A stretch of DNA of 64,000 nucleotides from Thermodesulfobacteriota bacterium (GTDB lineage: Bacteria; Desulfobacterota_D; UBA1144; Nemesobacterales; UBA2774): assembly GCA_021604765.1 (NCBI GenBank), contig BQJP01000008.1:918-64917 (forward strand), given 5' to 3'. The notes below the pieces were generated by a model. It worked only from the letters and a program-made list of their open reading frames with translations, was not told the DNA's origin and searched no databases. The position numbers and the translations under genes are program-made. Below are positions 15,366 through 59,932 of this stretch, in pieces (within the stretch, counting starts at the first letter, position 1; each line of letters begins with the position of its first letter).

Positions 15366-15372
15366 AAAAGTC

Positions 15373-42185: not shown

Positions 42186-42419
42186 TAATAAAAATAAAGT
42201 ATTTTACTTAAGTTGTCAAGAAGAATTTTCCTCTATTCAACAAATAATCCTAAGCAGCTGGATTTAATTAAAAATTATTGCTTAATAAAAAACCTTATAG
42301 TGATTGGGGTATTTTCTTGAAAGTTAATGGAACCATGATATATTTTCGGTTTTGAATTTACAGCTAAAACAACAAAATATTAATCTCTAAAGGTATTTAA
42401 TCCTTTAGACTCTAACTAA

Positions 42420-42491
42420 GGCGGCGTAGCTCAGGGGCAGAGCGGGGCTCTCATAAGGCCTGTGTCGGTGGTTCAAATCCACCCGTCGCCA
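42420..42491 (+). tRNA. tRNA-Met (anticodon CAT; elongator Met or Ile2/lysidine type)
   Basis: Cloverleaf: acceptor GGCGGCG/CGTCGCC, D-arm GCTC…GAGC, anticodon loop CTCATAA, T-arm GGTGG-TTCAAAT-CCACC. No encoded CCA. Confidence 0.85.
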
Positions 42492-42492
42492 C
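42443..42492 (+). repeat. 50-bp direct repeat copy 1 (3' half of tRNA-Met), putative attL
   Basis: Exact 50/50 identity with 58932-58981. Confidence 0.85.
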
Positions 42493-42656
42493 TCTTTTTA
42501 AACCCCAATATTTATTATATATTTAAATGGATACAGGAACTTACAACTGCCGATATTGAAATTGCTTCTTTTCTATATTTTTCTCTTTTTTTCTCAATTT
42601 TACTACTTTTTATGTCAGAACAATCCCACGAACAAAAAGTAGGATAAAACGAAAGC

Positions 42657-43598
42657 TCAATTTTCCTTTATAAACTCATCAATCAGTTTTGCGATTTGTT
42701 CTGGTGCATCCTCATGACAGTAGTGACCAACTCCCTCTAGAGTATAAATGTTGCCATTCGGAAAAGCCTCACTAAAGAGCGGAAGGAAGTGTGCAGATTG
42801 AAGAGTTTTGTCTTCCATTCCCCATATTGCTAATGCAGGCTTGCGTGATAGCTCTTTTGCTATGAGAGTGTCACTCACCTCAAATCTATGCGTACCTTCC
42901 GCAAACCCCTGAGCCCAACCGATAGCGCCTTTACAATTCTCCGGAGATTTGAAATGATCACGATAAGCATGTAACCAGGTATCTGTGATGACCTCATTAT
43001 GCACGAATCCGTTTAATTTTAGAGTACTGAGAATATTGTAATCAAGCTGTCCGAGAATCTGCCCTAAAGTGCCATCCGCATATGCCTTAGCGATCCAGCT
43101 GAACCATGGAGAGGCCACCCCATTTTTTTCAAGAGCATCAGCAAGACCCGGCTGCCCAAGCGGTGTGGGTCCGTTGGTGCTAATAATCCGCTTAATGCGA
43201 TCTGGATGACGAATAGCCAAGCCAATACCTGTAGGTCCGCCAAAGTCATGCATTACAAGCGTGATGTCTCTCAAGTCAAGATCGAGTACAAACCGCTCAA
43301 GGTTATCGATATGATCCTGAAGCAGATAGCTCCTATCCTGGGGTGTATCACTTTTTCCGAAGCCCATGTGGTCGGGTGCTATTACTCTATATAATGATGA
43401 AAGATCTTGGATGAGATTTCTGAACAAATATCCCCATGTTGGCTCACCGTGAAGGGCCAGTATTGTCTCACCCTCGCCCTCCTCCACATAATGCATCTTG
43501 AAGCCCGGAGCGCTCGTGTAGTAAGCTTCGAAAAGCCACGTTCCTTCAAAGGTTTCCTCAGATGGTAAATCCAATAGCATAGGCGGTTTGTTTTTCAT
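42657..43598 (-). CDS. Alpha/beta hydrolase, haloalkane-dehalogenase-like
   Basis: …HGEPTWGYLFRN… and nucleophile elbow …HDFGG…. Confidence 0.7.
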   Translation of the reverse strand: MKNKPPMLLDLPSEETFEGTWLFEAYYTSAPGFKMHYVEEGEGETILALHGEPTWGYLFRNLIQDLSSLYRVIAPDHMGFGKSDTPQDRSYLLQDHIDNLERFVLDLDLRDITLVMHDFGGPTGIGLAIRHPDRIKRIISTNGPTPLGQPGLADALEKNGVASPWFSWIAKAYADGTLGQILGQLDYNILSTLKLNGFVHNEVITDTWLHAYRDHFKSPENCKGAIGWAQGFAEGTHRFEVSDTLIAKELSRKPALAIWGMEDKTLQSAHFLPLFSEAFPNGNIYTLEGVGHYCHEDAPEQIAKLIDEFIKEN

Positions 43599-44278
43599 TT
43601 TAATTTGCGCTTTTTGGTCATATGTTTAATTGCAACTTTTGTAGTCCATACTGTATTTGCTAGAAAACGGAAATTGGTTAGTGCGGCTTGATAACCGTCT
43701 CCTTCTGGAACCTGTGCTGCAGCAGTTGCGTCTTTCACCACAGCAATTTCAAACCCTTGCTCTAATAGCTCACGTAAATGGGACTCAACACATAAATTGG
43801 CTGACATACCTGCCAAAATAACCTTATCGATCTTACGCTTTCTTAATTGAAGAACAAGGTCGTTTGCTTCTGGACCATATACTTTATGAGGGCTGCATAC
43901 TATTGTTTTGCCATCGTTAATATAGGGTTTATATTGCTCAAGCCAGTCTGCACCTGAACCTTCAAATTCATCTAAATTTAGGGCGCTTTTTCGGTCAAAC
44001 ATTCCTATATAATGCATTAACCTTTCTAATGCACCCTCAAATTTCCAGCCATGATCTGTTGGATAATAATAGTGAGGGGAGATAAAAACCGGTATTCCAT
44101 TTTTCTTTGCGGTTTTAAAAAGAGAATCTAAATTCTTAACAGTGTTGTTCTCAGTTACGTTTTCTCCAACTACACCCCAAGTTACTCCTTCTGGACTTAG
44201 GAAATCATTTTGTGGATCAGTAATAACCAAAGCTGTATTCTTAAAGTCTACTTTTAATCCTGGGTTTGGTAATGCCAT
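43595..44278 (-). CDS. Isochorismatase-family hydrolase
   Basis: …ALVITDPQNDFLSP… with a catalytic …C…. Confidence 0.7.
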   Translation of the reverse strand: MALPNPGLKVDFKNTALVITDPQNDFLSPEGVTWGVVGENVTENNTVKNLDSLFKTAKKNGIPVFISPHYYYPTDHGWKFEGALERLMHYIGMFDRKSALNLDEFEGSGADWLEQYKPYINDGKTIVCSPHKVYGPEANDLVLQLRKRKIDKVILAGMSANLCVESHLRELLEQGFEIAVVKDATAAAQVPEGDGYQAALTNFRFLANTVWTTKVAIKHMTKKRKLK

Positions 44279-44386
44279 TTTTAGTCACCTCTTTATATTA
44301 AGTTTTTATTAAACATTCAAACAAATAGCTCCTTTGAAAGGACTATAGAGGAGAGATTTTTTTGATCTCTCCTCTAAGATGTGCAT

Positions 44387-44734
44387 TCAATTAACAAATA
44401 GAATCCAGCCGTTCTGCTCACTTCCCTCAACCTTGCCTGTGATCTTTACGTTGGTTCTATTAGGGTTTCGCTCTATCTTCATCAAACCGTCTTGAAGACC
44501 TTGAAGTGAATAAACTCTGGTCTCTGTTACAAGAACATGCTGATGAGGTGGCAAACCATCACAAGGATGTGTTGCTATAACCGGATTAACAGTACCTTTG
44601 GCGTAATCTGGTATTAGGCAAATTACATTTCCTTGAACGGTCTTTGAGTCATCTGCATAGCTCAAAGTAGCCGCAAAGATTGAAAGCGTAAGTCCAAATA
44701 TTAATGTTAGCGTTGTTAGTTTTAAGTTTCTCAT
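44387..44734 (-). CDS. Secreted hypothetical protein
   Basis: Signal peptide. 115 aa. Confidence 0.45.
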   Translation of the reverse strand: MRNLKLTTLTLIFGLTLSIFAATLSYADDSKTVQGNVICLIPDYAKGTVNPVIATHPCDGLPPHQHVLVTETRVYSLQGLQDGLMKIERNPNRTNVKITGKVEGSEQNGWILFVN

Positions 44735-44768
44735 TTTAATTTCTCCTTTTTATTGATTTTATTTATGA

Positions 44769-45782
44769 TTATTTTTTAGCTGTGGACTTCTTAACTACAT
44801 TTTTCTGCATAAATCTATCAATGTGATTTGAAATAATGTACAAATCCTCTTCAAGGGCGAAGTGCCCAGTGTCGAGAATGTTAAAATCGATATTCTTTAA
44901 ATCTCGTTTGTAAGGGTAAGCACCTTCAGCAGGAAAAATGTGGTCATTCTTACCCCAGACTATAAGAGTAGGTGGTTGGTGCTTTCTGAGATAAGCCTGC
45001 CAATCTGGATATAACGGTGGATTTGAACCGTAGCTGTAGAATAGAGCGAGTTGGATTTCTTGGTTTCCTGGACGGTCTAATAGAGGCTGGACGTGACCCC
45101 AGTTGTCAGGGCTAATAGTTTCAACATTTCGTACTCCATGAGTATATTGCCACTTAGTTGTGTCCAAGGTTAGGAATCCTTTAAGAGGTTCAGCGTTTGC
45201 CTCAGACCTGTCTTTCCAATAAGCTTTAAGTGGAATCCAAAATTCACGAAGACCCTCTTCATAAGCATTTCCGTTCTGTATTATTAGAGCATCCACCTTT
45301 TCAGGATTTTTAGCTGCGATACGGAAACCAACTGGAGCACCGTAGTCCTGAAGGTATAGGGTGTAATTTTCTATCCCCATTTTGTTGATGAACTTTTCAA
45401 CTACAACTGCTAAGTTATCAAATGTATAATCGAACTCATCAACTGTAGGCATAGAACTGAAACCATATCCTGGATAATCTGGAGCTATCACATGGTATTT
45501 GTCTGAGAGCTCTGGAATAAGATCCCTGAACATATGAGAAGAAGTAGGGAACCCATGCAATAGAACAATAGTGGGAGCATCTTTAGACCCCGCTTCTCTA
45601 TAGAAAATATCTAGTCCGTCTATTTTGATGGTTTTGTGAAGAGTCTGATTGTTACTTTGAGACTGTTCTCCTGCGAACGCAGAAACTCCGCTTAGATCAT
45701 TACTTGATAAATTAGGCGTAATAGATCCAGCAATCATTAATACTAAAAACATCAGTAAAGCTTTTCTAAAAAGGTTTAACAT
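44769..45782 (-). CDS. Secreted alpha/beta hydrolase (epoxide hydrolase/dehalogenase-like)
   Basis: …[10 protein letters not shown]… and …DYGAPVGF… The true start is likely ATG 45782 (MLNLF… signal peptide) with AGGAGG 8 nt upstream. The ORF-track start at 45860 would overlap the promoter. Confidence 0.7.
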
Positions 45783-45819
45783 TGTACTACCTCCTGAAAC
45801 TTTGATAGTTCCTATAAGT

Positions 45820-45834
45820 GCAATGGGCGTGCCA
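45820..45834 (-). promoter_or_regulatory. Sigma-54 (-24/-12) promoter TGGCAC-N5-TTGCA
   Basis: Minus strand reads TGGCACgcccaTTGCA, an exact consensus. It sits about 38 nt upstream of the hydrolase-operon start and next to the bEBP gene. Confidence 0.7.
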
Positions 45835-45970
45835 ATGTAGGGAGTTTTTGCTTGTAACACACTAAGCCACTGACATTAAATGATTTATTGAAACTATTAG
45901 GAAGGTTCAATTACAGAACTAGGTCTGAAAAATTTGGGATATTTAGAAAATCTTTGCTATATGGAAACTT

Positions 45971-47542
45971 CTATCTCTTAGAAATACCAAGCTTTCTCAT
46001 TCGCGATTCTAGGGTGGAAGAGTTCAGCCCTAAGATCTTAGCTGCTCCTTTATCACCACTAACTCTCCCGCCAGTTAATTCTAAAGCTTTTAAAATATGG
46101 TTTTTCTCTAATTCTTCTAAAGTTGCAACCTCATTGCTATCCGACAGCTTATCATTTGTTTTACTTTTAGGTACCCAATCACCCAATTGCAATGTGGTCG
46201 TCTCACTTATAATCACTGCTCTCTCTATTATGTTTTCTAATTCCCTTACATTTCCAGGCCAGTTGTATTCTACAAGACGGCCCATAACCTTCTTACTTAC
46301 AGATTTGATGTTCTTTCCAACCTTTACTCCTAACTTGTCACAAAAGTAATTGACTAATAAAGGTATATCTTCCTTTCTCTCACGTAAGGCTGGAGAATGA
46401 AGGGGAAAAACATTGAGTCTATAAAAAAGATCTTCACGAAAATCTCCTTTTTCAATAGCAGTCTCTAAATCTCGATTAGTAGCTGCTATCACTCTTACGT
46501 CCACTTTCATAGTCTTCGGATTACCAAGTCTTTCAAATTCACCTTCTTGGAGAACCCTAAGCAGCTTAGCTTGTAGTCCCAATGGCAGGTCACCTATTTC
46601 ATCTAAAAATATAGTGCCGCCATTAGCAAGTTCAAATCTGCCGATTTTTTGACTTATAGCCCCGGTAAAAGCCCCCTTTTCATGACCGAATAACTCGCTC
46701 TCTATTAAATTAGCGGGAAGTGCAGAACAATTTACTTTTACCAAAGGTCTATCTTTTCTGGAGCTGTTGTTATGTACTGCACGTGCTAATAATTCTTTGC
46801 CTGTACCCGTCTCTCCCAGTATCAATACAGTCGAACTTGTTTGTGCAACCTGTTCAACTTTTTTTAATACTTTTTTTATTGTGTTACTTTTACCAATTAT
46901 CTCCGTAAAGTTGTATTCCTCTTTGATTTCTTCCTGAAGGTAAATATTTTCTTGTTCAAGTTGGTTCTTTAACTTCTCTACTTCAGAATAAGCCTGTTTA
47001 AGCGCCTCTTCCGCCTCTTTTTCTTTAGTTACATCTCTGAAAACAACAACTGCACCAACCAATTTACCTTTTTCCCATATAGGGGTGCTAACATATTCAA
47101 CAGGAAAGCTGCTTCCGTCTTTTCGCCAAAATACTTCATCTTTTACAACATGAACCTTGCCATCTTTGAAGGCTGCATATATAGGACACTCAGTGTTTGG
47201 ATAATGTGATCCATCAGCTCTTGAATGATGCAAGATCTTGTGTTGAGATTTCCCTAGGAGTTCTTCGGGATTCCAACCAATCATTTCTGCTGCCGCTGGG
47301 TTAACGAAGGTTGTATTTCCTTTTGAATCAAGGCCGTAGATTCCTTCTCCCGCAGCATTAAGGATTAACTCATTCCTTGTTTTAAGTTTGCTGATTTCAT
47401 CGCTCATCTCTTTTATCTTAACATGCGAGTATTTTTTTTCGAAGATATCTAAAACGTTAATTGTTCCTTTTACAACTTCATTGTTGAAAGTATTTTCTGA
47501 GAATGTTTCTTTTATTATTTTAGACATATCAAGCTCCTCCAA
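45971..47542 (-). CDS. Sigma-54-dependent transcriptional activator (PAS + AAA+ + Fis HTH)
   Basis: PAS domain, Walker [15 protein letters not shown] motif, [15 protein letters not shown], and a C-terminal HTH. Confidence 0.9.
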
Positions 47543-47558
47543 AAAACTGCTTTGTTAT

Positions 47559-47574
47559 TACCGAACGTTCGGTA
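47559..47574 (+). promoter_or_regulatory. Perfect 16-bp palindrome TACCGAACGTTCGGTA (putative TetR operator 1) overlapping a TATAAT box
   Basis: Perfect dyad. TATAAT at 47573-47578. Confidence 0.55.
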
Positions 47575-47618
47575 TAATTACATCATATTTGATTTTTATT
47601 ATGTTGTCAAGTATTTTT

Positions 47619-47636
47619 TTACCGTACGTTCGGTAA
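47619..47636 (+). promoter_or_regulatory. Near-palindrome TTACCGTACGTTCGGTAA (putative TetR operator 2)
   Basis: 17/18 symmetric. It lies 34 nt upstream of the TetR ATG and 45 bp from operator 1. Confidence 0.5.
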
Positions 47637-47669
47637 CGTGGCAGTCTGCAAATTCTGAAGGAGACGAAT

Positions 47670-48245
47670 ATGGCTAGAAATAAAAGTGTTGATGACGAGA
47701 CCCTGATCATAAAACTGACACAAGCTTTCCGTGATTATGGATACGAAGGTGCATCCTTAAATATCTTAGCAAAAGCTACAGGACTTCAAAAAGCGAGTCT
47801 ATATCATAGGTTTCCTGGGGGAAAAGAAGAGATGGCTCTAGAGGTCTTAAATAGGGCGGGCAACTGGGTTGGAGAAAATATTGTATTACCGCTAACTTCA
47901 AATATTAAACCCGAGAAGAAAATTAAAATCATGGCAAAAAAACTTGATGAATTTTATTCGGGCGGAAATAATTCATGTTTACTTAACATGTTAGCCTCCC
48001 CAGAGATGATAAAGGGCCCATTTACAAGTCATATTAAAGAAGCATTTGAAGTTTGGATAAAAACACTATCAGATGTGCTTGTAGAAAGCGGACTAAGTAG
48101 AAAAGAAAGCAGGAAAAGAGCAGAAAATGCTATAGCCATGCTTCAGGGTTCCCTCGTTATGTCTAGAGGAATGAATGACCCAAAACTTTTTAAAAACTTT
48201 CTAAAGAACTTACCTAACATGCTATTAGATAATAATAAGTTATAA
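47670..48245 (+). CDS. TetR-family transcriptional regulator
   Basis: HTH …ASLNILAKATGLQKASLYHRFPGGKEEM…. Confidence 0.8.
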   Translation: MARNKSVDDETLIIKLTQAFRDYGYEGASLNILAKATGLQKASLYHRFPGGKEEMALEVLNRAGNWVGENIVLPLTSNIKPEKKIKIMAKKLDEFYSGGNNSCLLNMLASPEMIKGPFTSHIKEAFEVWIKTLSDVLVESGLSRKESRKRAENAIAMLQGSLVMSRGMNDPKLFKNFLKNLPNMLLDNNKL

Positions 48246-48250
48246 CTCTA

Positions 48251-48291
48251 AAAAAAGGAGTACAAACAATTAAGCTTGTACTCCTTTTCTA
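48251..48291. terminator. Bidirectional intrinsic terminator (A-tract, 9-bp stem GGAGTACAA/TTGTACTCC, T-tract)
   Basis: Lies between the convergent TetR (+) and YHS (-) genes. Confidence 0.6.
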
Positions 48292-48315
48292 TGCCAAATT
48301 CTATTCTATATTTAA

Positions 48316-48777
48316 TTAAAGATCAGCGGGATCTTTGTCTTTTATATTTGGCCAATGCTTGTTTGCTTTTACTATATTGCCTGGAATATCTTCAAACCAT
48401 ATTTTCTGGATTTTTTTATCGAGATTAAGATATAGAGTTCCATCTACGATTTTCCATGCTTCAGGATCTCCGACAAATTTCTTACCTACTGATGCACCAT
48501 ATGCACAGTAACCTCCGTATGCCGGAAGATATTTATTAGGATTCGCTTCAAATGCCTTCTTGTTCGCTTCGTTGGCAAAGAGGTAAGTCACATCGTCAAT
48601 TACAACTAGGTTGTTTCCGTCACCTCTTACAGGTTTTCCTTCTGTATGATATGCAACAAGGTCATAACCTAGAACACCTGTTGTGCTTTCTTGAACATAT
48701 CCTGCAAAAGAATCAACTGCAAAAAAACTTACTGCTACAACTAAAACTGTTAACATAATTGTTTGAATTTTCTTCAT
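48316..48777 (-). CDS. Secreted YHS-domain-like protein
   Basis: Signal peptide, …GYDLVAY…YLF.NE.NK.AF..NP.KYLPAYGGYCAYG…. Confidence 0.55.
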   Translation of the reverse strand: MKKIQTIMLTVLVVAVSFFAVDSFAGYVQESTTGVLGYDLVAYHTEGKPVRGDGNNLVVIDDVTYLFANEANKKAFEANPNKYLPAYGGYCAYGASVGKKFVGDPEAWKIVDGTLYLNLDKKIQKIWFEDIPGNIVKANKHWPNIKDKDPADL

Positions 48778-48991
48778 GATAGTCTCCTATTTTGTTATTT
48801 TGTGAAACATTCTGTCCCAATGTGTACTCAAAATATCTGATTCTCTACTACTCTGACATTGCCCTAATTTACTAAGCTAGGATTAGCAAATATTGGATCA
48901 AGTAATTAAACTTGAGCCATAATTTGAACGACTCGTTTGTTTATATATTCATCACCCCCTTGTGACTATATATTGGCTAGAATCTGATCTC

Positions 48992-49720
48992 CTATATCAG
49001 CTCAACCATGTTGTACTGAGACAATTTATCCTTGAACTGAAGCCTTGCTCTCCTAAGCCTGGACTTAACTGCACTGAGGCTTAGACCGAGCAATCTTCCA
49101 ACTTCAAGATTTGTGTGTCCTTCCATATCTTTTAAACGAAGCACAGTTCGGTATATTTCAGGAATCTCCATTAGTATTGATTCAATTTTTTCACGTCTCT
49201 TTTCTTGCATGAGTATTTGATCTGGAATAAACCTCCAGTCTTCTGCAGGCATAGAATACTTAGTTTCTTTCTCATCGTATGTTTCTTCTATAAGCTGTTT
49301 TTCATCTTGATACTTTTTATTACTTCTCAAATACATAAGACAAGTATTTTTAGCTATGCTATATAGCCAGGTAGAGAACTTGGATTCGTTTCTAAATGTT
49401 CCGAGCTTCTCTACAAGTGTTATGAAAACTTCCTGAAGAACATCATCAGCATTTCTTTCATTTTTGGTAAATTTAAGTGCAAGCCTGTATATCTTGCAGC
49501 TATATCTGTTTACAAGTTCATTAAATGCCCACTCATCTTTGTGATTTAAATAGAGTTTGACTAAATTTTCATCATCCTCATTTCTATACCTAATAAAAGA
49601 AAAATCCTCTGATTTATCAATTAGCGGTGACTCTATTACGTGTTTAATAGGTCTCTGCTTAACCTGGTAATTTGCAATATTATCTATATTGTTTGACTCT
49701 GCTAAATTAGTATTTTCCAT
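48992..49720 (-). CDS. ECF (sigma-70 family) sigma factor with N-terminal extension
   Basis: Region 2 …DVLQEVFITLVEKLGTF… and region 4 …RLLGLSLSAVKSRLRRAR…. Confidence 0.8.
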   Translation of the reverse strand: MENTNLAESNNIDNIANYQVKQRPIKHVIESPLIDKSEDFSFIRYRNEDDENLVKLYLNHKDEWAFNELVNRYSCKIYRLALKFTKNERNADDVLQEVFITLVEKLGTFRNESKFSTWLYSIAKNTCLMYLRSNKKYQDEKQLIEETYDEKETKYSMPAEDWRFIPDQILMQEKRREKIESILMEIPEIYRTVLRLKDMEGHTNLEVGRLLGLSLSAVKSRLRRARLQFKDKLSQYNMVELI

Positions 49721-50053
49721 CTTTCTTCTCCTTTTCTAATTCTTATTAATTTTTATTTACTACATGTATGTATAAAGCAAGGAGTGTGCCAAATATAAAA
49801 ATTAGGCTGGAGGATAATGTAATTGCCTTAAATAATTGAATTAAATTAACATTTAGGTGGAGCTTGGCTGAGGTTAACGTATTGAGATCAAATGTATTTA
49901 TTTACGCTATATTATAAATTTGCGAAATGTCACGACTTACTATTTCAATTTGATCTAAAGATAAGGTGTTGAGTAAACATGAATAGGAAGTCTTCTTGCA
50001 ATCTAATTATCTGTATTTTCCTAAAACTAATTATTTGCATCTCACTTTTATTG

Positions 50054-50560
50054 TTAGTAAGTAAAGGCGATGCCTATTAGTATTGCCTTAGAAGATTCTG
50101 CATGATATAAACCGATCTCAAACCCACAATCAATTGCTATTTGATCATTGGCCTCATATACAAAACTAGTTTTATGATATATTGGTTTTTCAGTATCATA
50201 TTCGGCAAACTCTCCTGCTACTTCTGAAACAACTGCTGTATTTTTTCTAAACGTAGGAACTTCTATCTCCAGCCCATAGTAAAACATTTCATCAAAAGGT
50301 TGGTCTATAAATATCTTGCTAGTTGGTGAATAGCCAAATTCCTCTTGTATTGGTGTAATAAATAGAATTTTTTCTAGTCCTAGCAAAACATCTGATTCAG
50401 ATCCAATTACTCTATATTCAATTCCTGTCTCTAACTCAACCTCCACTTTTTCGGATATATAGTCATAAACACCTTCGGTTGAAGAATGAGCAAACACTAA
50501 TTGAGAATTGAGAACGATGAAGAGTAAAAAAATCGTGTGAATAATAATTTTAAATAACAT
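50054..50560 (-). CDS. Secreted hypothetical protein
   Basis: Signal peptide. 168 aa. Tightly linked downstream of the TPR gene. Confidence 0.45.
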   Translation of the reverse strand: MLFKIIIHTIFLLFIVLNSQLVFAHSSTEGVYDYISEKVEVELETGIEYRVIGSESDVLLGLEKILFITPIQEEFGYSPTSKIFIDQPFDEMFYYGLEIEVPTFRKNTAVVSEVAGEFAEYDTEKPIYHKTSFVYEANDQIAIDCGFEIGLYHAESSKAILIGIAFTY

Positions 50561-50593: not shown

Positions 50594-51916
50594 TTACTTT
50601 CTAGTAACTAATATTGTATTTATATCCAGGATCAAAGCTTTAGATTCATTAACTTTGTTTTGATCAAAATATGGATTTATATCTAAAGCTAACTCAAAGT
50701 GCTTTTTAGCTTCCTTAAATTTATTCTGGCTATAGCAAATCATTCCCGCGTGATAATGGAGAAGGGCATCCTTTGTACCTAACTTAAGTGATTGGTTTAT
50801 GGCATCCTGAGCCTTATCAAGATCATTACGTTTGAAATGCACCCAAGCGAGTGTGTCATAAGCATAAATGTCTTCAGTATCTTTGGAATCTTGTAGGGCC
50901 AGATCTAACGCAAGGTCTAAATGTTTGTTACTATCTACATAAAATAATACAAGGTCTCTTGAGTGACCTTTAATGCCATCCTGTATTATCGTATCGTAAC
51001 TTTCCTCAGCCTTTTTATAAAGTCTGTCAGCCTTTTCGGTCTTGCCTTGGCTCTTGTAAATATCTCCAAGTGAAATATAAAACTGTGGTTTTGGGTTCAG
51101 CTCTAAGGTTTTTTCATAAAGATTAATTGCTTCTTCGAAATTACCTTTTATAGCATTTACTTCCGCCAGATGCTCAAGTGCAAGATAATAATTGTCATAG
51201 ATATCAAGTGCTTCTTTATAATAATCCCGGGCCTTGTCTAGCTCTCCAGTATTAAAATAAAATGAACCTAGAATTACTTTTGCCCAAGCTATGTTTTCAT
51301 TAGGCAGGTTCATTTTATTTCCATAATCTATTGATTTTTCCATCGCCTTAATTGCACCAATTGTGTCGCCCCAGAGAAACTTTAATTGAGCTATCCTGCT
51401 GTATGAATAAAAACCGGGCTCTAGATAGAGCATAAGTCCGTACGCTTTTAGAGCTTCTTCATACATACCAAGTTCAAGAAAGGCATCTCCTTGAAGTCCA
51501 TAAGATATAGCCTTGTCTGGCCTCAACTCTATTGCTTTTTTCGCATAATTTATTGATTTGTGAAAATCATGTTTATATGAACTAATCTGCCCTAAGTAGA
51601 TGTAAGCAGCATATGAATCAGGATAAAGCTCGAGTGCTCTCTCTATAGCTTTTTCTGCTAGTTGATAAGGGCCTATTTGACCCACTTCCCTACCTTTTTG
51701 TATGTAAGATTCTCCAAGTTTTAAGTAGTAATAGTAATCTTCAGGATGTTTGTTGATCTTAGTTTTATATAAATTTATCTCCTTATCAGCCGGACTTTCT
51801 ATGGCTACCTTTTCAACTTCACTATGAGAATGTCCACCTTTATGAGCGTAAGAGAAAGCTGGTGAAACTAATAATGCTATGAAGAAAAAAATTATTGGTG
51901 ATCTATATGTTATCAT
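50594..51916 (-). CDS. Secreted TPR-repeat protein with an N-terminal His-rich segment
   Basis: Signal peptide, HKGGHSHSE, and multiple TPR units (…YYYLKLGESY…, …ALKAYGLMLYLEP…). Confidence 0.75.
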   Translation of the reverse strand: MITYRSPIIFFFIALLVSPAFSYAHKGGHSHSEVEKVAIESPADKEINLYKTKINKHPEDYYYYLKLGESYIQKGREVGQIGPYQLAEKAIERALELYPDSYAAYIYLGQISSYKHDFHKSINYAKKAIELRPDKAISYGLQGDAFLELGMYEEALKAYGLMLYLEPGFYSYSRIAQLKFLWGDTIGAIKAMEKSIDYGNKMNLPNENIAWAKVILGSFYFNTGELDKARDYYKEALDIYDNYYLALEHLAEVNAIKGNFEEAINLYEKTLELNPKPQFYISLGDIYKSQGKTEKADRLYKKAEESYDTIIQDGIKGHSRDLVLFYVDSNKHLDLALDLALQDSKDTEDIYAYDTLAWVHFKRNDLDKAQDAINQSLKLGTKDALLHYHAGMICYSQNKFKEAKKHFELALDINPYFDQNKVNESKALILDINTILVTRK

Positions 51917-51988: not shown

Positions 51989-53647
51989 TTAATCAACTGG
52001 ACAAAAGCCCGTGTCTGTACCTGTACAACCAAACTCTCCTGGATCAACGTGACGGCTATTGCGTCCATCATTTGGATAATTCAAATAAGGAAATGATGTG
52101 CGGTATGGAAGCACATCATTTGCGTTAACACCATCGCCAATTCTATTGTGAGGAAAGATGTTGAAATCAGGATTTAATACTCCTACAGCTACACGGGATG
52201 TAATATCAATCACATCATCAATCACACGACGTCCGTTAGGAAATCCGGCAGGGTCATCATTGAACTCATCATCATCAAGAACGGTCAGGAAACCTAAACG
52301 GCTTTGCTGATCAGGCGGTGTTGGAGGAACTCCAGTGTTAAGTCTGAGCAGGTCAGCAATCGGTCCTGTTGGTGTTCCCTCAGGAGCAATAGGTGCTGTG
52401 TACTGTACTAGTGGTAAAAGATCAAGCCTTGGAACATTAGGTATAGGAAGAATGTTCGGGCCAAATAGAGCCTCATATACTGAGTTCAATACTCTAGCAA
52501 TTACTGGATCGAGAAAGAAATCTGAGAACTCTGCATCATTTTTTGGCTGAGCCATACTGAACTTATCTTTAAATCCAATACCAATGATTAGCTCGTTAAT
52601 TAGAGGATTAGCCATTCTTTGAATCTGAGTGAATCTTCTTGATAGTCTGGGATCTTCTCCAGGTCCTCTGAAAGTTTTCTTGGTAGGTCTTGAGCTTGTT
52701 CCCCACATACCTATTGTGGACTCTGGTTCTGAGGCGCTATGAATCTCGCCATCGCTAGTTAGAAGTTCTATTGGAACTTCTATGGCAATAGCGTTTACGT
52801 TATAACCAGAGAACTCATCAGAAGCATAGTTGTTAAAATCATCAGCATCTTGTTCATCAGTTAATACACCCTGTACAACAAAACCTTGGGTTCTGAAATT
52901 GAATGAATCGAATGCTGCGCCAAGATCTAGCCAGAACGGATCATCAACAGTACCGGCAAAAGATTTAACACCGTTATCAAGCTTATAAATACCCTGCTCA
53001 AATAATAATGGGTAATTAGGCATGGTTCTTGGGCCTGCATTGGTAGGAACTTTAAATAGTGATCCACCGTTAGCATTTTGAAGGACTGTACGTTTCTTTC
53101 CTTTTACCATTGTAACGGTATAGGACTGTCTTAGACCAAGTCCTTCAGACCCGGGTCCATCTAAAGCTGTAATTGCTGGTGGGACAACCAGCTGTCCAAC
53201 AGTTGAATTTCCGTTTAAGTCATCCGGAGAATTAGCTGGCGCATTTACACCACCAAGCGCACCAACATACGCAGTAAATACATTTGGTAATCGAATTTCA
53301 TTCTGAAAGCGAAATTCGAAAACTATATCTTCCACTGCGTCATGGTCGTTATCAACCCTAATTGCATATAGAATTTCAGGATCGAAGGGGAAATATGTAG
53401 GACCGTTTCCTGGTTCTAGAAACGGGTCGTAAGTTACAATCATTGTAACTTTGTCAGAAGCGCTAGGATCCGAAGGATCATAACTTACGAAAGCAAATAC
53501 ATCTGGTATATCGGCTTCGTCATCTATCGCAGTTATAGGAGCCTCTCTATGATTAGCTGCCTGTGCGATATTTTGAATACTTGTAATAGACATTGTTAAG
53601 CCCATTATCAATAATGCAAATACGGTGAAAACTCTTGAAATACTCAT
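51989..53647 (-). CDS. Secreted DUF4331-family protein
   Basis: Signal peptide, then …ANHREAP…DDEADIPDVFAF… The true start is likely ATG 53647 (MSISRVF) with GGAGGT 7 nt upstream. Confidence 0.6.
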   Translation of the reverse strand: MSISRVFTVFALLIMGLTMSITSIQNIAQAANHREAPITAIDDEADIPDVFAFVSYDPSDPSASDKVTMIVTYDPFLEPGNGPTYFPFDPEILYAIRVDNDHDAVEDIVFEFRFQNEIRLPNVFTAYVGALGGVNAPANSPDDLNGNSTVGQLVVPPAITALDGPGSEGLGLRQSYTVTMVKGKKRTVLQNANGGSLFKVPTNAGPRTMPNYPLLFEQGIYKLDNGVKSFAGTVDDPFWLDLGAAFDSFNFRTQGFVVQGVLTDEQDADDFNNYASDEFSGYNVNAIAIEVPIELLTSDGEIHSASEPESTIGMWGTSSRPTKKTFRGPGEDPRLSRRFTQIQRMANPLINELIIGIGFKDKFSMAQPKNDAEFSDFFLDPVIARVLNSVYEALFGPNILPIPNVPRLDLLPLVQYTAPIAPEGTPTGPIADLLRLNTGVPPTPPDQQSRLGFLTVLDDDEFNDDPAGFPNGRRVIDDVIDITSRVAVGVLNPDFNIFPHNRIGDGVNANDVLPYRTSFPYLNYPNDGRNSRHVDPGEFGCTGTDTGFCPVD

Positions 53648-53681
53648 AATTCTTACCTCCATTGAAGTTGTTTTGAATATA

Positions 53682-53709
53682 TATACGGAGGTTGTTCTGA
53701 ATTGGAGCA
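53682..53709 (-). promoter_or_regulatory. ECF-type promoter TGCTCCAA-N14-CGTATA upstream of DUF4331
   Basis: Minus strand: TGCTCC (53709-53704), a 16-nt spacer, then CGTATA (53687-53682). It shares the motif found at 55081, 55651 and 57085. Confidence 0.55.
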
Positions 53710-53769
53710 TATATTTTATAGAACTAATATGTATTTTATAATATATATGTATTATTTTGACTTCTGGAA

Positions 53770-53881: not shown

Positions 53882-54412
53882 TTAATTCTTTTCCTCTACA
53901 AAAACAAGCGCACCCGAGTTTAAACAATATCTAAGGCCTGTTGGTTCTGGTCCATCGTTGAAGACGTGTCCCAAATGCTCTCCGCATTTTGACAAAACTT
54001 CAGTTCTTTTAAAACCTAGGTCGTAATCATCCTTGAGTACTATTGCATCTTCAGAGATAGGTTGATAGAAACTCGGCCATCCAGTACCAGAATCGTATTT
54101 ATGTTCTGAACTAAATACTGGCTCTTTACAGCCTGCGGTTAGGTATACGCCTTCCTTCTTATTGTAAAGCAGATCTCCCGAGAATGCTTTTTCTGTTCCT
54201 TTCTCCCAAAGCAACTGATACTGAACCGGCGTTAACCTTTGCTTCCATTCTTCTTTGGTAATTTTTGAGAGATCATTTGTGTTGGATTCTTCCTGCGTAG
54301 CCTCTGAAACTTTCACATAACCAATTGACTCTTTTTGCGTTGAATTAAAATATAATAGCCCAAGAGCTAAAATCACTACTAACATTATTCCCGTCGATAT
54401 TCTTTCATTCAT
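53882..54412 (-). CDS. msrB: Peptide-methionine (R)-S-oxide reductase MsrB with N-terminal signal/anchor
   Basis: …[24 protein letters not shown]… catalytic Cys motif. A Cys pair (…GCKEPVF…CGEH…) is consistent with the zinc site. Confidence 0.85.
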
Positions 54413-54481
54413 GGTTTTCTCCTCTAAAATAGAAGGCGCTTTTGAATTGCTATAAGCGCCCCTCTATTGTTTTTCATATAC

Positions 54482-55048
54482 TTAATTAGGTAATACAACA
54501 GTGTCTATGACGTGGATTACACCGTTTGACTGTATTACGTCATATGTCGTAATATTTGCAAAATTGCCCATTTCGTCCTTAAGAACAACGTTTGTTGGAC
54601 CATTCATCCAAGCAACTAAAGTATCACCACTAGCAGTTTTGAACTCAGCCTGTCCGCCTGCAGCTTTGATCTGCTCTGAAAGAGCCTTGAAATCTAGTCT
54701 TCCAGGAATTACATGATATGTGAGCACCTTAGTAAGGGTTTCCTTATTCTCGGGTTTTAGAAGTGTCTCAACAGTTCCTTCAGGTAGGTTTTCAAAAGCG
54801 TCATTTGTAGGAGCAAATACTGTAAATGGTCCTGGGCTTTTGAGAGTCTCAACCAACTCAGCTGCTTTTACTGCTGCAACCAAAGTGGTATGATCCTTCG
54901 AGTTAACAGCGTTGTCTATAATATCCTTTGTAGGATACATAGCCTCACCGCCAACTATTACATTACTTGCAAAAACATTTGATGCTGCCACTGTTAAAGT
55001 AGCAACAACAAGAAACATCATAATAAATTTTTTGAATATACTGTGCAT
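54482..55048 (-). CDS. Secreted fasciclin (FAS1) domain protein
   Basis: …FTVFAPTNDAF…TYHVIPG… FAS1 motifs. Confidence 0.85.
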   Translation of the reverse strand: MHSIFKKFIMMFLVVATLTVAASNVFASNVIVGGEAMYPTKDIIDNAVNSKDHTTLVAAVKAAELVETLKSPGPFTVFAPTNDAFENLPEGTVETLLKPENKETLTKVLTYHVIPGRLDFKALSEQIKAAGGQAEFKTASGDTLVAWMNGPTNVVLKDEMGNFANITTYDVIQSNGVIHVIDTVVLPN

Positions 55049-55080
55049 TTAAGCACCTCCTTAATTTTTTTTCATATATG

Positions 55081-55108
55081 ATTACGGAGGTTACTTTGAG
55101 TTGGATCA
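55081..55108 (-). promoter_or_regulatory. ECF-type promoter TGATCCAA-N14-CGTAAT upstream of fasciclin-msrB
   Basis: Minus strand: TGATCC (55108-55103), a 16-nt spacer, then CGTAAT (55086-55081). RBS GGAGGTG before ATG 55048. Confidence 0.6.
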
Positions 55109-55244
55109 TAAAAAAGAATATTTTTTTGATTAGCACGAACTTTATTATAGAAAGTAGACTGCGAAATTATTCAGATTAGCATATGAGACGATAAAGCAAT
55201 TTAATCTCTAGTAACAATAAGGAGTTAATATTTTTTAGATTACA

Positions 55245-55292
55245 AAAAAGACGGGGGAAGCCTTGTCTATTATGGACTTGGCTTCCCTCTTT
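55245..55292 (-). terminator. Intrinsic terminator (stem GGGAAGCC/GGCTTCCC) after the small secreted protein gene
   Basis: 8-bp GC stem at 55255-55262 and 55280-55287. The minus strand is followed by CCGTCTTTTTT. Confidence 0.55.
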
Positions 55293-55307
55293 TGGGTTGG
55301 GGTATGG

Positions 55308-55586
55308 TTATGATTTGTTGGCTGTGGGGACACTAACGCCAAAGACTATCAAACTGTCTTGATCACTCGAATTATTAACTTGCTTCGAGTCTGTTTCTAT
55401 ATTTTCGCCTTTTGAGCTTATATAGAAACTAATGAAATCTGTCTCAACCATTCCACCTTTTGCTTGGTCGTTAACAGTGCTTTTAACTACGGGTGTTTGT
55501 ACACCGAAAACGTTAACGTCTGCAAAGGATAAGGAAGGACTTAGTAGAGCTAGACTCAATGTTGCTATTGCTAATAGCTTTCTCAT
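55308..55586 (-). CDS. Small secreted hypothetical protein
   Basis: 92 aa with a signal peptide. Confidence 0.5.
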   Translation of the reverse strand: MRKLLAIATLSLALLSPSLSFADVNVFGVQTPVVKSTVNDQAKGGMVETDFISFYISSKGENIETDSKQVNNSSDQDSLIVFGVSVPTANKS

Positions 55587-55650
55587 TTGACTTACCTCCT
55601 TTTAAAATATTTATTCTGAGCCGCTAGGATCATGAATATGTTTTCCTAAG

Positions 55651-55678
55651 ATTACGTTGATACAATAATATTGGATCA
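55651..55678 (-). promoter_or_regulatory. ECF-type promoter TGATCCAA-N14-CGTAAT upstream of the small secreted protein gene
   Basis: Minus strand: TGATCC (55678-55673), a 16-nt spacer, then CGTAAT (55656-55651). Confidence 0.55.
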
Positions 55679-55772
55679 CTTATTTTAATAAGAGGTGGAT
55701 TTATTGAGATTATTACAATTGTTAAGATTTATATTATAGAAAATTATATGAATATTCGATCAAGAATGAAGC

Positions 55773-56381
55773 TTATTCGGCAGGCAACATCTCATTTTCT
55801 TGAGAAGCTTGTATTAATAGGAAACAACCTGTTACAGTGGAAATACTTTCATGAACACTATGTGCATCAGCTCGAATATAATCTCCTTTACCAAAGGTCA
55901 TTCCGCCCATGCTTAACTCACCTTCTATGATGTAACACTCTTCAGCTTCTGCATGAACATGGTCTGGGAAAGTCGATCCAGGATCCATTTTTACAAGAAC
56001 AGTTGAATACTTTCGGGCAGGATCTTCATAAAGCTGTTTTACTTTGACACCATCTACGACTTCAACCCAATCACCTTGATTTTCTCGCACAAATAGATAA
56101 CCGGTTTCCTTCTCTGCTACATCCCTTTCTTTTTGGATTTTTGTAAAAAGTTTATCCTCTAAGCCTCTTGGTTCTTTGCGGGGCTCAGTACTATAAGTTA
56201 CGTCTTCCATTATTTCGTTGAAGTAATCAAGATGCACAGATGCTGAGCCATTTTCTTTAAGCATAGCCTCAAATACTGCTTTATCTTCGTCACCTAAAAC
56301 TCCTAATGCATAAGAAGCAGCCAGATCTTGAATTTCTTCGTCAGTGTACTTTTGACTCATATAAATGTCCTTGTTCTTCAT
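55773..56381 (-). CDS. Cytoplasmic anti-sigma factor: RskA-like N-terminal sigma-binding domain + C-terminal cupin (ChrR-like architecture)
   Basis: N-terminus …LAASYALGVLGDEDKAVFEAML… with no Cys and no TM. C-terminal cupin …VLVKMDPGSTFPDHVH…EECYIIEGEL… It overlaps the ECF sigma gene upstream. Confidence 0.65.
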   Translation of the reverse strand: MKNKDIYMSQKYTDEEIQDLAASYALGVLGDEDKAVFEAMLKENGSASVHLDYFNEIMEDVTYSTEPRKEPRGLEDKLFTKIQKERDVAEKETGYLFVRENQGDWVEVVDGVKVKQLYEDPARKYSTVLVKMDPGSTFPDHVHAEAEECYIIEGELSMGGMTFGKGDYIRADAHSVHESISTVTGCFLLIQASQENEMLPAE

Positions 56382-57021
56382 TAATTATATTCTTCATTTT
56401 AACCATTGCAACTCTGATAGTGCTCTTTACAGATCCTACGGGAATACCAACTTTATCCGCAATTTCACTATGGCTGTACTGATGATAATAAGAAAGCTCC
56501 ACGACCTCTTTTTGCTTAGGTGTGAGTTGAGCCATGGCATGTTTTGTGATTTTTCTCATTTCTGAAGCAACATAAGTATCTTCAGGATTATCTGTTCCCG
56601 TCACCATGCTATCATCAATGCTATCGTCAATGTGAACTGTTTTTGCACTTTTTCTAATCTTATCAATTGAACGGCTCCTGGTAATCATCAATAACCAACT
56701 TAAAGGCTTGCTCAGATCTGAATCATATTTGGATGCGTTGTTCCATACATACATAAATACCTCAAGGGCAACTTCTTCAGCCTCTTCCGGATTAGAAATA
56801 ATCTTATGAGACATACTGTAAACTAGTCTTACAGTTTGTTGGTAAAACGTTCTCATTGCATTTTCATCGCCATTTGAAATTAGCGATAATAATGTTTTTA
56901 ATTCATTTTCCCTGTCAGTGTGCTCAGTAGCAACTGTAGCAGTATCCTGATTCATTTTTTCCCTGTAACTATCTAAGAATAATATGTTAGAATCATTTAT
57001 CTTTGCCATTATATCACACAC
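56341..57021 (-). CDS. ECF sigma factor (cognate to the cupin anti-sigma)
   Basis: Sigma-70 region 2 …EVALEVFMYVWNNASKYD… and region 4 …YSHSEIADKVGIPVGSVKSTI…. Confidence 0.8.
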   Translation of the reverse strand: MCDIMAKINDSNILFLDSYREKMNQDTATVATEHTDRENELKTLLSLISNGDENAMRTFYQQTVRLVYSMSHKIISNPEEAEEVALEVFMYVWNNASKYDSDLSKPLSWLLMITRSRSIDKIRKSAKTVHIDDSIDDSMVTGTDNPEDTYVASEMRKITKHAMAQLTPKQKEVVELSYYHQYSHSEIADKVGIPVGSVKSTIRVAMVKMKNIINEEQGHLYESKVH

Positions 57022-57084
57022 TCTATTCTATATCCAATCATTAAATTACCTTTTTATAGTTACAGAAATACTTATTCGAATAGT

Positions 57085-57112
57085 AATACGACAACTAGAT
57101 CAAATTGGATCA
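57085..57112 (-). promoter_or_regulatory. Autoregulatory ECF promoter TGATCCAA-N14-CGTATT
   Basis: Minus strand: TGATCC (57112-57107), a 16-nt spacer, then CGTATT (57090-57085). It lies upstream of the ECF/anti-sigma operon. Confidence 0.6.
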
Positions 57113-57208
57113 CTTATCTTTGTACTTAAGAAGAAAACATAGAAATGGAGCTGTATTAATAAGAGGTATTCTGCTATGCTTGCAGTAGTTTAGGATAGTT
57201 TGCAAGTT

Positions 57209-57799
57209 CTATTCATCTAATAAATTTAGAGTGTTTTTTAGTTTATCTTTAGCTAGTCTGATTGTGCTTTTTACAGAACCGACAGGCATATCCAACATTT
57301 CTGCAATTTCTGACTGATTGAATTGATAGAAGTAGACAAGCTCTATAACTTTTCTCTGCTTTGGGCTTAATTCCAATAAAGCATCCTGAACGATTTTACG
57401 CTTTTCCTGCCCTAAAACTGTATCTTCCGGGCTAAGATCAGTATTCGTCAATTCTCTTTCGAGCGAATCAGAAATCTCCATGGTGACTTTCCGTGAACGT
57501 AGTTTGTCTATGGCACGTGAGCGTGCAATCATTACAAGCCATGTAGTCGGGTTACTTTGTGAAGGATCAAAATTTGAAGCATTTTTCCAGACATACTTAT
57601 ATACATCTAGGGCAACTTCCTCAGATTCAGATGTATCACTAAGTATTTTCAGCACAAGGCTATATATCAGTCTATTAGACTCATCGTATAATTCACCTAG
57701 TGCATTATCATTTTGTTTTGCAATCTGTGTTAAAAGACGTTGCCATCTTTGATTTCTTTCTAAGGAAGTTTCGGATTTTATATTGATATCTGATGACAT
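57209..57799 (-). CDS. ECF sigma factor
   Basis: Region 2 …EVALDVYKYVWKNASNFD… and region 4 …FNQSEIAEMLDMPVGSVKSTIRLAK…. Confidence 0.8.
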   Translation of the reverse strand: MSSDINIKSETSLERNQRWQRLLTQIAKQNDNALGELYDESNRLIYSLVLKILSDTSESEEVALDVYKYVWKNASNFDPSQSNPTTWLVMIARSRAIDKLRSRKVTMEISDSLERELTNTDLSPEDTVLGQEKRKIVQDALLELSPKQRKVIELVYFYQFNQSEIAEMLDMPVGSVKSTIRLAKDKLKNTLNLLDE

Positions 57800-57990
57800 A
57801 TCTTATCCGTAAGCGGTTATGTAATTTTATACTATACAAAATTAACTGTATAGCGCAGCTAATATTAATTTATCACATAAAGTGAGCGAAATTTCAAAAG
57901 CGGACGTATACATGTTACAAAATATAGAAAAGTTATATGTAATTGTACTTTGATGTTACAAGATGTACCATATTATAATTGAGGAATAGC

Positions 57991-58806: not shown

Positions 58807-58931
58807 CCATTATATTTATTTTTGATCAACCTAAAATATGCAAATAAATGGAAGAACAATCCCACTACAATCACATAAGTTCATAAATAGCATGATAAAT
58901 CTAACAATTCAAGTGAGTTGTGCACTTGGAA

Positions 58932-58981
58932 CGGGGCTCTCATAAGGCCTGTGTCGGTGGTTCAAATCCACCCGTCGCCAC
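58932..58981 (+). repeat. 50-bp direct repeat copy 2 (3' half of tRNA-Met), putative attR
   Basis: Exact copy of 42443-42492. There is no 5' tRNA half here, so it is not a functional tRNA. Confidence 0.85.
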
Positions 58982-59007
58982 CAATCATTTCAATGTCTTA
59001 AGCTGAT

Positions 59008-59229
59008 TCATAAATTTCCTTCGATGCCCAAGTCAGTGGATTTGCCAGTAACAGAAGAGTATTTCCCTAATATGTCAGTCCCTTTTCTCACACTTTCTTC
59101 TGGATGACTATATCTCTCGGTTATCTTTACTGTTGAATGGCCTAGTAGCTTTGCTACTGCATGAAGAAGTATTTCAGACCCTACTAATCTTGTAGCTACA
59201 GTATGACGTAAGCCGTGAAATCCGAGACC
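59008..59229 (-). pseudogene. Tyrosine recombinase (phage integrase) C-terminal remnant
   Basis: Minus-strand translation GLGFHGLRHTVATRLVGSEILLHAVAKLLGHSTVKITERYSHPEE…* carries the catalytic-box R, H.LGH and Y. An in-frame stop lies immediately upstream, leaving only ~73 codons. Confidence 0.75.
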
Positions 59230-59351
59230 TTATTTATTCTGATCTATCAATCTCACAATTTGTATATTAAATACAAAAAGAAAAATATATAATATGGTAT
59301 TGAACCTTTCTGGCTCATGGTGTTACTTACTGTTCAAACGGATAGGAAAAA

Positions 59352-59930: not shown

Positions 59931-59932
59931 CT

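Follow-up and report, generated by a model that had tools for sequence, protein, structure and literature searches.

The window analysed here, a stretch of 64,000 nucleotides (nt) from a Thermodesulfobacteriota bacterium (contig BQJP01000008.1, positions 918 to 64,917), carries a four-gene operon, ABH1-SSP-ISO-ABH2, which is headed by a -24/-12 sigma-54 promoter box and lies directly behind the gene of a PAS-domain enhancer-binding protein. With moderate confidence, we read this arrangement as a genuine sigma-54 operon under its own PAS activator, gated by a TetR-family regulator and encoding a detoxification set. The core of the idea, a sigma-54 promoter with a cognate ligand-sensing activator and a hydrolase operon, had been put forward in a preliminary description of the same DNA and is now backed by the presence of the box in eight loci and by the linkage of activator and hydrolase genes across phyla. 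The central features, in window coordinates, are the following.

45834..45819 (16 nt), minus strand: sigma-54 promoter, -24/-12 box TGGCACGCCCATTGCA, with GG at 45833-45832 and GC at 45821-45820
45780..45795, minus strand: ribosome-binding site AGGAGG and ATG (45782) of ABH1; GGAGG and ATG are kept in all five aligned relatives
44769..45782, minus strand: ABH1, exported alpha/beta hydrolase, 337 aa (Pfam Abhydrolase_1, E 7e-37)
44387..44734, minus strand: SSP, small exported protein, 115 aa, with a signal peptide and no Pfam or NCBIfam match
43595..44278, minus strand: ISO, isochorismatase-family cysteine hydrolase, 227 aa (Pfam Isochorismatase PF00857, E 7e-28)
42657..43598, minus strand: ABH2, cytoplasmic alpha/beta hydrolase, 313 aa (Pfam Abhydrolase_1, E 8e-26)
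45971..47527, minus strand: enhancer-binding protein, PAS-AAA+(GAFTGA)-HTH_8, 518 aa (Pfam Sigma54_activat PF00158, E 1e-75)

The GG and GC doublets of the box are exactly 10 nt apart within TGGCAC-N5-TTGCW, and transcription is predicted to start near 45808. The box had already been noticed on the minus strand upstream of ABH1, and it is real, but it ends at 45819, giving 16 nt, and not at 45820. Scanned with the pattern TGGCACN5TTGCW, the window contains two exact boxes against 0.07 expected from the dinucleotide shuffles that served as background, and 1 of 100 shuffles reached two. The same pattern occurs 18 times in 406 kb of related loci versus 1.18 times in dinucleotide shuffles, and when the related loci, locus L001 and the window are taken together, 21 of the 22 exact boxes are closely followed by an open reading frame (ORF) of 60 aa or more on their own strand. 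From the box to the ATG at 45782 the distance is 36 nt. The longest ORF, which is used by the public gene calls, begins at a GTG at 45860 (363 aa) and would place the promoter inside coding sequence; an exact look-up of ABH1 from ATG 45782 accordingly gave no match. Because of the AGGAGG ribosome-binding site, the signal-peptide-like N-terminus that results from ATG 45782 and the burial of the promoter in the GTG frame, we consider this ATG the better start of ABH1; the preliminary description had corrected the start to the same position, and its conservation in the relatives bears the correction out.

Orthologous loci were gathered with the SSP, ABH1 and activator proteins as queries, and eight were compared for the box: the window, L112, L113, L114, L116, L004, L032 and L121. 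The window's proteins match exactly those of a metagenome-assembled genome labelled Thermodesulfobacteriota bacterium DHS20C13, and relatives carry the label Candidatus Dadabacteria. The box stands ahead of the first operon gene in all eight, with TGGCAC and TTGC invariant and at least four different spacers between them.

TGGCACGCCCATTGCA: window, L112 and L116, ahead of ABH1-SSP-ISO (the window adds ABH2)
TGGCACACCTGTTGCA: L113 and L114, ahead of ABH1-SSP-ISO
TGGCACGCGCGTTGCA: L004, ahead of ABH1-ISO
TGGCACACCGATTGCC: L032 (GC 57%), ahead of ABH1-ISO
TGGCACACTTATTGCG: L121, ahead of ISO-ADH-ABH2

The intergenic alignment of five relatives is mostly diverged, and its conserved islands are a block after the activator stop codon, a AATATCAG..GTTAG block, the box and the ribosome-binding site. 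Judged from sequence, the ABH1 operon is very likely sigma-54-dependent. Its genes are separated by 34 nt (ABH1-SSP) and 108 nt (SSP-ISO), the start of ABH2 overlaps the ISO stop by 4 nt, and no terminator-like sites were found inside the operon.

The activator gene lies directly upstream of the ABH1 operon on the same minus strand, that is, in tandem. Its domain make-up, PAS-AAA+(GAFTGA)-HTH, had been recognised from the sequence and agrees with both Pfam and the GAFTGA motif, but the gene had wrongly been called divergently placed: the divergent neighbour is a TetR gene. In addition to the Sigma54_activat domain, Pfam finds PAS_9 (E 3e-15), PAS (E 3e-13), HTH_8 (E 1e-8) and AAA_lid, and the translation contains the GAFTGA loop together with Walker A/B motifs, including FLDEIG. 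The protein more likely starts at ATG 47527, which has a GGAGGA ribosome-binding site and yields the 518 aa of the public calls, than at TTG 47542. The PAS domain (residues about 55-175) carries the motif H-x3-HH-x3-DG-x7-CPIYAA-x-KDGKVH. In 30 homologues from several phyla (50-84% identity), many of which have the domain as a tandem duplicate, H96, C114 and P115 never vary, and at least 90% retain H100, H101 and H126. No solved PAS domain has this His/Cys motif, and it is plausible from the conserved residues that the domain is a sensor based on a cofactor, a metal or a thiol. The activator gene directly precedes the operon in the window, L112, L113, L114, L116, L121 and L032; on two of these contigs it is incomplete, namely in L116, where the gene is cut and adjacency was taken from the intergenic alignment, and in L032, where the 3' end alone is present. 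We consider the adjacent protein the probable cognate activator of the ABH1 operon.

Between the activator gene and the box, phylogenetic footprinting brought out the following elements.

45925..45971, minus strand: conserved block of 47 nt, putative enhancer (upstream activating sequence), at -91 to -137 from the box; from the five-relative alignment, also present in L121
45953-45966, minus strand: degenerate site TTCCATATAGCAAA in this block, 18 nt from the second site
45935-45948, minus strand: degenerate site TTCTAAATATCCCA in this block, 18 nt from the first site
45862..45877, minus strand: AATGTCAGTGGCTTAG, an IHF-like site located between this block and the promoter; the AATATCAG..GTTAG block is found in 4 of 5 relatives

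Inverted repeats of an upstream activating sequence had been suggested for 45860-45970; a conserved element is indeed present there, but it forms no clean inverted repeat, and repeat-finding in two upstream regions returned weak, uninformative repeats. The core CCAAATATC / CTAAATATCC is all that the ABH1 upstream block has in common with the canonical sites in L004 and L121. In the recognition-helix region, the activator of the window clade reads NSSTLESRM versus NP[NS]TLRSRM in relatives that have canonical sites. Judging from essentially one lineage, the recognition helix and the ABH1 enhancer may have changed as a matched pair. The IHF consensus is WATCAANNNNTTR; the window copy deviates from it by one mismatch and the L113 copy, TATCAACAAGTTA, matches perfectly. 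AATGTCAGTGGCTTAG is a weak candidate for an IHF site.

Upstream of the activator gene, the following elements suggest a further layer of control.

47670..48245, plus strand: TetR-family regulator gene, divergent from the activator gene (Pfam TetR_N and TetR_C_13_2)
47610..47582, minus strand: sigma-70-like promoter of the activator gene, TTGACA-17-TATGAT (11/12 matches), conserved in L112
47559..47574, no strand: operator-like perfect 16-nt palindrome TACCGAACGTTCGGTA, downstream of the -10 element, conserved in L112
47620..47635, no strand: second operator-like palindrome, a copy with one mismatch that lies upstream of the -35 element, 35 nt ahead of the TetR start codon

The palindrome matches number two against 0.10 expected, and the arrangement of promoter, both palindromes and TetR gene is conserved in L112. 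Such a pair of palindromes is the usual look of TetR operators, and the TetR-family protein is presumed to act as a repressor there. That it gates the activator gene seems to us somewhat more probable than the contrary, and this suggests two tiers of control, TetR over the synthesis of the activator and PAS over its activity. The preliminary description had overlooked both this activator promoter with its presumed TetR gate and the second sigma-54 promoter before an ECF sigma gene, which is treated below.

Gene order and families of the operon had been named correctly, as Pfam confirms: an alpha/beta hydrolase, a small secreted protein, an isochorismatase and another alpha/beta hydrolase. ABH1 has HGFP at residue 76, the nucleophile Asp146 (QDYG), Asp280 and His307; ABH2 has HGEP at residue 50, Asp118 (HDFG), His292 and a candidate acid, Asp263, in a WGMED motif. 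The N-terminal core of both proteins aligns best to haloalkane dehalogenases, and their cap regions barely align. Haloalkane dehalogenases are defined by two halide-stabilising residues, a Trp that follows the nucleophile and either the HGNP Asn or another Trp, and the corresponding motifs compare as follows.

Dehalogenases (DhaA; 8OOH): oxyanion-hole motif HGNP, nucleophile motif HDWG
ABH1: oxyanion-hole motif HGFP, nucleophile motif QDYG
ABH2: oxyanion-hole motif HGEP, nucleophile motif HDFG

In the PDB alignment with DhaA (E 9e-22), the two halide-binding positions of ABH1 are substituted, N->F and W->Y; ABH2 shows N->E and W->F against its best match 8OOH/8CKP (E 2e-37 against 8OOH), which we take to be an HLD-III-type haloalkane dehalogenase. 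The NCBIfam dehalogenase models score ABH2 at 135-140 bits and ABH1 at 80-109 bits, with cut-offs of 241-466. With both halide-stabilising residues replaced and the scores below the cut-offs, membership of the haloalkane dehalogenases was rejected for ABH1 and ABH2, and the earlier label of ABH2 as haloalkane-dehalogenase-like does not hold. By the residue test, both would be Asp-nucleophile hydrolases other than dehalogenases, from the class that includes epoxide hydrolases and dehalogenases. ABH1 has orthologues of 52-91% identity in 80 metagenome loci, and among the metagenome matches listed its relatives are encoded in at least 591 of 600 stretches. For ABH2, an orthologue of 74% identity with the same HGEP and HDFGG motifs stands in the L121 operon, and the gene is absent from L112, L113, L114 and L116.

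In ISO (Pfam 98 bits, cut-off 27), the triad Asp21, Lys132 and Cys163 aligns with the corresponding region of 3KL2. Among solved structures, cysteine hydrolases and amidases come closest, a biuret hydrolase among them, and an amide or ureide bond is most likely the target of ISO, as far as such relatives can indicate. A signal peptide is missing from ISO in the window clade and L004, and is clear in L121 (8710-9444), L058 (3371-4117), L066 (1552-2301) and L068, so that relatives place this enzyme in different compartments. SSP has 113 homologues, mainly in Dadabacteria-like genomes, every one of them unnamed or called 'hypothetical protein'; Cys39, Cys58, His64, His66 and Tyr44 are invariant in the pattern CxxPDY...PC...PxHxH. 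Its AlphaFold model (pLDDT 80) is all-beta, and the best PDB matches are OB-fold-like and non-significant (E 0.04).

Is the association of this activator with hydrolase genes peculiar to the window clade? ISO is the constant partner of the activator, and ABH1 plus SSP or a Zn-dependent alcohol dehydrogenase (ADH) plus ABH2 are interchangeable beside it. The 'three-hydrolase operon' of the preliminary description thus exists in the window, but it is not a fixed unit among the relatives, where ISO stays and the others vary. In L121, an 85%-identical activator stands ahead of ISO-ADH-ABH2. A 64%-identical activator precedes sec101-ISO-DUF1348-ABH1-DoxX-PNPOx-nitroreductase in L058, and in L119, a Phycisphaerales genome, an activator of 58% identity lies divergently from ABH1 (67%)-CMD-SDR-DUF1348. 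In L117 and L118, activators of 61-66% identity lie beside DUF1348, glutaredoxin, TetR, DSBA, SDR, CMD (AhpD-like) and GST genes. Counted over the 80 metagenome loci, the neighbours of ABH1 include PNPOx-like genes (32), DUF1348 (13), ISO (11) and DoxX (5). A fungal DUF1348 protein has been examined as a candidate cercosporin-resistance gene (PMC4608573). A literature search on DUF1348 together with isochorismatase found nothing useful. Because the neighbours of the activator and of ABH1 in other genomes look like defence genes, we tentatively favour a role in electrophile/redox or xenobiotic detoxification; that the operon is such a stress or xenobiotic module, and not a haloalkane or nutrient pathway, we would put at slightly less than an even chance. 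Next to the activator homologue in L117 (8540-11545), we also noted genes encoding a 477-aa Piwi-domain protein, a second protein of 132 aa and a SIR2_2 protein, which together resemble a short prokaryotic Argonaute defence system.

The window contains a second sigma-54 unit, upstream of the activator gene.

49776..49791, minus strand: TGGCACACTCCTTGCT, a second perfect sigma-54 box, whose first base is 71 nt from the ECF sigma ATG
48992..49720, minus strand: ECF sigma gene, followed by a YHS-domain gene at 48316-48777 ((seleno)protein family)
49903..49934, minus strand: canonical two-site enhancer of the ECF promoter, formed by CGTGACATTTCGCA (49921-49934) and a site at 49903-49916, 18 nt apart

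The second box and the ECF gene constitute a sigma-54 -> ECF sigma cascade, and the first base of CGTGACATTTCGCA lies 143 nt upstream of the box. Enhancers were scored with a position-weight matrix of 11 sites, all from distant loci, with the window and its close relatives excluded; the activators of L066, L068 and L069, a more distant subgroup with the palindrome TTGTGAWTCACAA, were kept out. The ECF enhancer is the window's best single and by far its best paired match to this matrix. The top score of 11.8 is in itself not unusual (block-shuffle mean 13.7), and the weight lies in position and conservation: L005 and L112 have kept both the box and the enhancer.

Similar paired near-palindromes are found 80-140 nt upstream of sigma-54-like boxes beside distant activator homologues, for example the two pairs below, and likewise in L118, L043, L058 and L117.

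L119: site pair CACGACATTTCGTG / CACGAAATGTCGTA
L032: site pair CGCGATATTTCACG / CGCGAAATATCACG

In 11 loci on which the matrix was not trained, the top site of the locus starts 112-143 nt upstream of a sigma-54 box. The consensus CACGATATTTCGTG is the top site in L013, L016, L017, L018, L025, L026, L028, L004, L113 and the window (49921-49934), and such sites serve activators whose sensors differ (PAS or GAF) but whose HTH is almost identical (NP[NS]TLRSRM). In other genomes (loci L002-L031), SSP belongs to two types of sigma-54-driven operon, one with STAS, ECF sigma, zf-HC2 anti-sigma and SSP and a divergent GAF activator, the other with cupin, SSP, DUF4142, cupredoxin and YHS. That SSP became inserted between ABH1 and ISO in the window clade is consistent with its earlier membership of this regulatory family. 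We raise, as a rather doubtful extension of these observations, that PAS(His/Cys) and GAF activators with a common Fis-type HTH and with CACGATATTTCGTG pairs about 18 nt apart, starting 112-143 nt upstream of the -24/-12 box, could represent an undescribed multi-phylum sigma-54 stress regulon, of which the window module would be a branch whose recognition helix (R->E, P->S) and enhancer changed together. Its parts may be sigma-54 -> ECF cascades (STAS, ECF sigma, zf-HC2, SSP), the SSP family, cytochrome P460, cupredoxin and YHS proteins, and the ABH1/ISO set. Cytochrome P460 genes occur in the same neighbourhoods in L113 (2061-3246) and L112 (839-1411); those of L113 lie behind a sigma-54 box (1966) that is accompanied by a GAF activator and a canonical enhancer site.

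For the ABH1 operon, we propose a circuit in which TetR would hold down the sigma-70 promoter of the activator gene through the two palindromic operators. The activator, once made, would bind the conserved block, which lies roughly 90-140 nt ahead of the -24/-12 box, and a bend at the IHF-like site would help it to reach the sigma-54 holoenzyme. A trigger sensed by PAS would then lead to ATP hydrolysis by the activator and to promoter opening. The expected products would be the exported Asp-nucleophile hydrolase ABH1, the exported Cys/His protein SSP, the cytoplasmic cysteine amidohydrolase ISO and the second Asp-nucleophile hydrolase ABH2.

Several observations weigh against this circuit. Neither the window nor 1.07 Mb of related loci yielded an rpoN gene; we infer the presence of rpoN and the use of sigma-54, for which the surplus of exact boxes in relatives (18 against 1.18) and the many intact activators speak indirectly. 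The TetR layer is not universal: L113 has the module without the TetR gene. None of the enzymes reaches any curated equivalog cut-off of NCBIfam, and the detoxification role is guilt by association, with most of the associated genes absent from the window. The block upstream of ABH1 scores below zero with the family enhancer matrix, and binding of the activator there would be argued from synteny and from the variant recognition helix. An activator encoded elsewhere might then fire the ABH1 promoter, with the PAS activator mainly serving the ECF promoter 2.2 kb upstream of its own gene. The best family-matrix match does lie at the ECF promoter, and these genomes hold several activator subfamilies of nearly the same HTH; the variant helix NSSTLESRM and the clade-specific conserved block at ABH1, however, fit a matched pair, the ECF promoter of L005 adjoins a different activator with the canonical helix, and the tandem of activator and operon is kept without a nearby ECF gene in L113 and L121. 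We therefore regard a foreign activator as quite unlikely. Finally, no terminator-like site separates the activator gene from ABH1, so read-through transcription is possible, and the box could be a chance occurrence in an operon read through from the sigma-70 promoter of the activator. Given that the box is kept in eight loci despite divergence of spacer and flanks, and that 0.07 chance boxes are expected in the window, this is barely credible.

In E. coli, the rut operon combines a sigma-54 promoter with an amidohydrolase of the isochorismatase family, an alpha/beta hydrolase and the TetR repressor RutR. By analogy, the window operon, which shares with it the sigma-54 promoter, the two hydrolase families and an adjacent TetR-family regulator, might scavenge nitrogen or carbon from a specific amide, ureide or ester. 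Weak NCBIfam similarity indeed connects ISO with RutB/BiuH, ABH1 and ABH2 with RutD, and the TetR protein with RutR, and cysteine hydrolases and biuret hydrolase are among the best solved relatives of ISO. The scores, however, fall short of the equivalog cut-offs by an order of magnitude (RutB 35 bits vs 378, RutD 42-44 vs 238.5, RutR 23 vs 368), RutA-, RutF-, RutC- or RutG-like genes and a transporter were not found in the operon, two products, ABH1 and SSP, are exported, and a dedicated PAS activator takes the place of NtrC. Moreover, the genes associated elsewhere (GST, glutaredoxin, AhpD-like, DoxX, nitroreductase) resemble defence and not assimilation. Membership of the Rut pyrimidine pathway was rejected on the NCBIfam cut-offs and the lack of RutA, RutF and RutB/C/D/E equivalogs in the operon, and a scavenging operon in this wider sense seems unlikely. 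A haloalkane or halo-acid dehalogenation module would accord with the closest solved relatives and the top NCBIfam names of ABH1 and ABH2, and both proteins resemble DhaA-type enzymes in the alpha/beta fold, the Asp nucleophile, the His base and an acid at the expected place. Substitution at both halide-stabilising positions in either protein, caps that barely align, scores of 80-140 bits against cut-offs of 241-466, and the retention of HGEP and HDFGG in the L121 orthologue of ABH2 make dehalogenation very improbable.

Among known systems, the sigma-54 operon with its own PAS activator that we favour is closest in layout to XylR/Pu and DmpR/Po, classical catabolic operons under sigma-54 whose dedicated activator is encoded in cis. 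It shares with them a -24/-12 promoter, putative enhancer sites about 100-150 nt upstream with an IHF-like site between, and a GAFTGA AAA+ activator with a Fis-type HTH and an N-terminal sensor, encoded beside its target. Unlike in those systems, the sensor is a single PAS domain with an invariant His, an invariant Cys-Pro and three near-invariant His, not V4R/GAF; the activator gene is seemingly TetR-gated, the enhancer is degenerate and clade-specific, and the targets are hydrolases. NorR is a stress-sensing sigma-54 enhancer-binding protein, and like it, the window activator may detect a reactive small molecule and switch on detoxification genes, although its sensor is PAS and not GAF and the content of the regulon differs. 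A further sigma-54 catabolic system with dedicated activators is reported to be RedR1/RedR2 for resorcinol (PMC10084136). Our literature search found no described activator of the PAS-AAA+-HTH kind seen here.

The architecture is textbook-style, and its value is moderate. For the Dadabacteria-like bacteria (Thermodesulfobacteriota), uncultured marine organisms on whose sigma-54 a full-text search found no paper, it offers a clean sigma-54 circuit open to testing. The widespread, uncharacterised ABH1 family is also connected by it with a cysteine hydrolase as partner and with a dedicated sensor. Sensing of electrophiles, redox state or a metal by the His/Cys motif of the PAS domain would make it a new input class for enhancer-binding proteins, and would help to work out what ABH1, ISO, DUF1348 and the proteins of the SSP family do.

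The module is accessory and probably mobile. The preliminary description had placed it on an island, which the window itself does not support: GC is flat (0.37-0.40 inside and outside the module) and the annotated flanks within the window contain no integrase, although a tRNA border and variable presence among relatives are found. The tRNA-Met gene (42420-42492, plus strand) adjoins ABH2 and was the sole match of an Rfam scan of 42300-50200; the lower-coordinate flank consists of core genes such as parAB, ftsK and SCO1/PCuAC. In relatives, the module ends after ISO with an integrase fragment in L113 (8498-9124) and an IS3 transposase in L114 (3254-4395). L005 has ECF-YHS-TetR followed by an IS element (14463-15610), and no module.

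Beyond the second sigma-54 unit, the window holds a dense cluster of envelope/oxidative-stress regulators at 53882-60643. It includes three ECF sigma genes (56341-57021, 57209-57799 and 59352-59930), a ChrR-type cupin anti-sigma gene (55773-56381), an RskA-type anti-sigma gene (57979-58806), MsrB (53882-54412) and a fasciclin protein (54482-55048), and just below it lie the genes of a DUF4331 protein (51989-53710) and a TPR protein (50594-51916).

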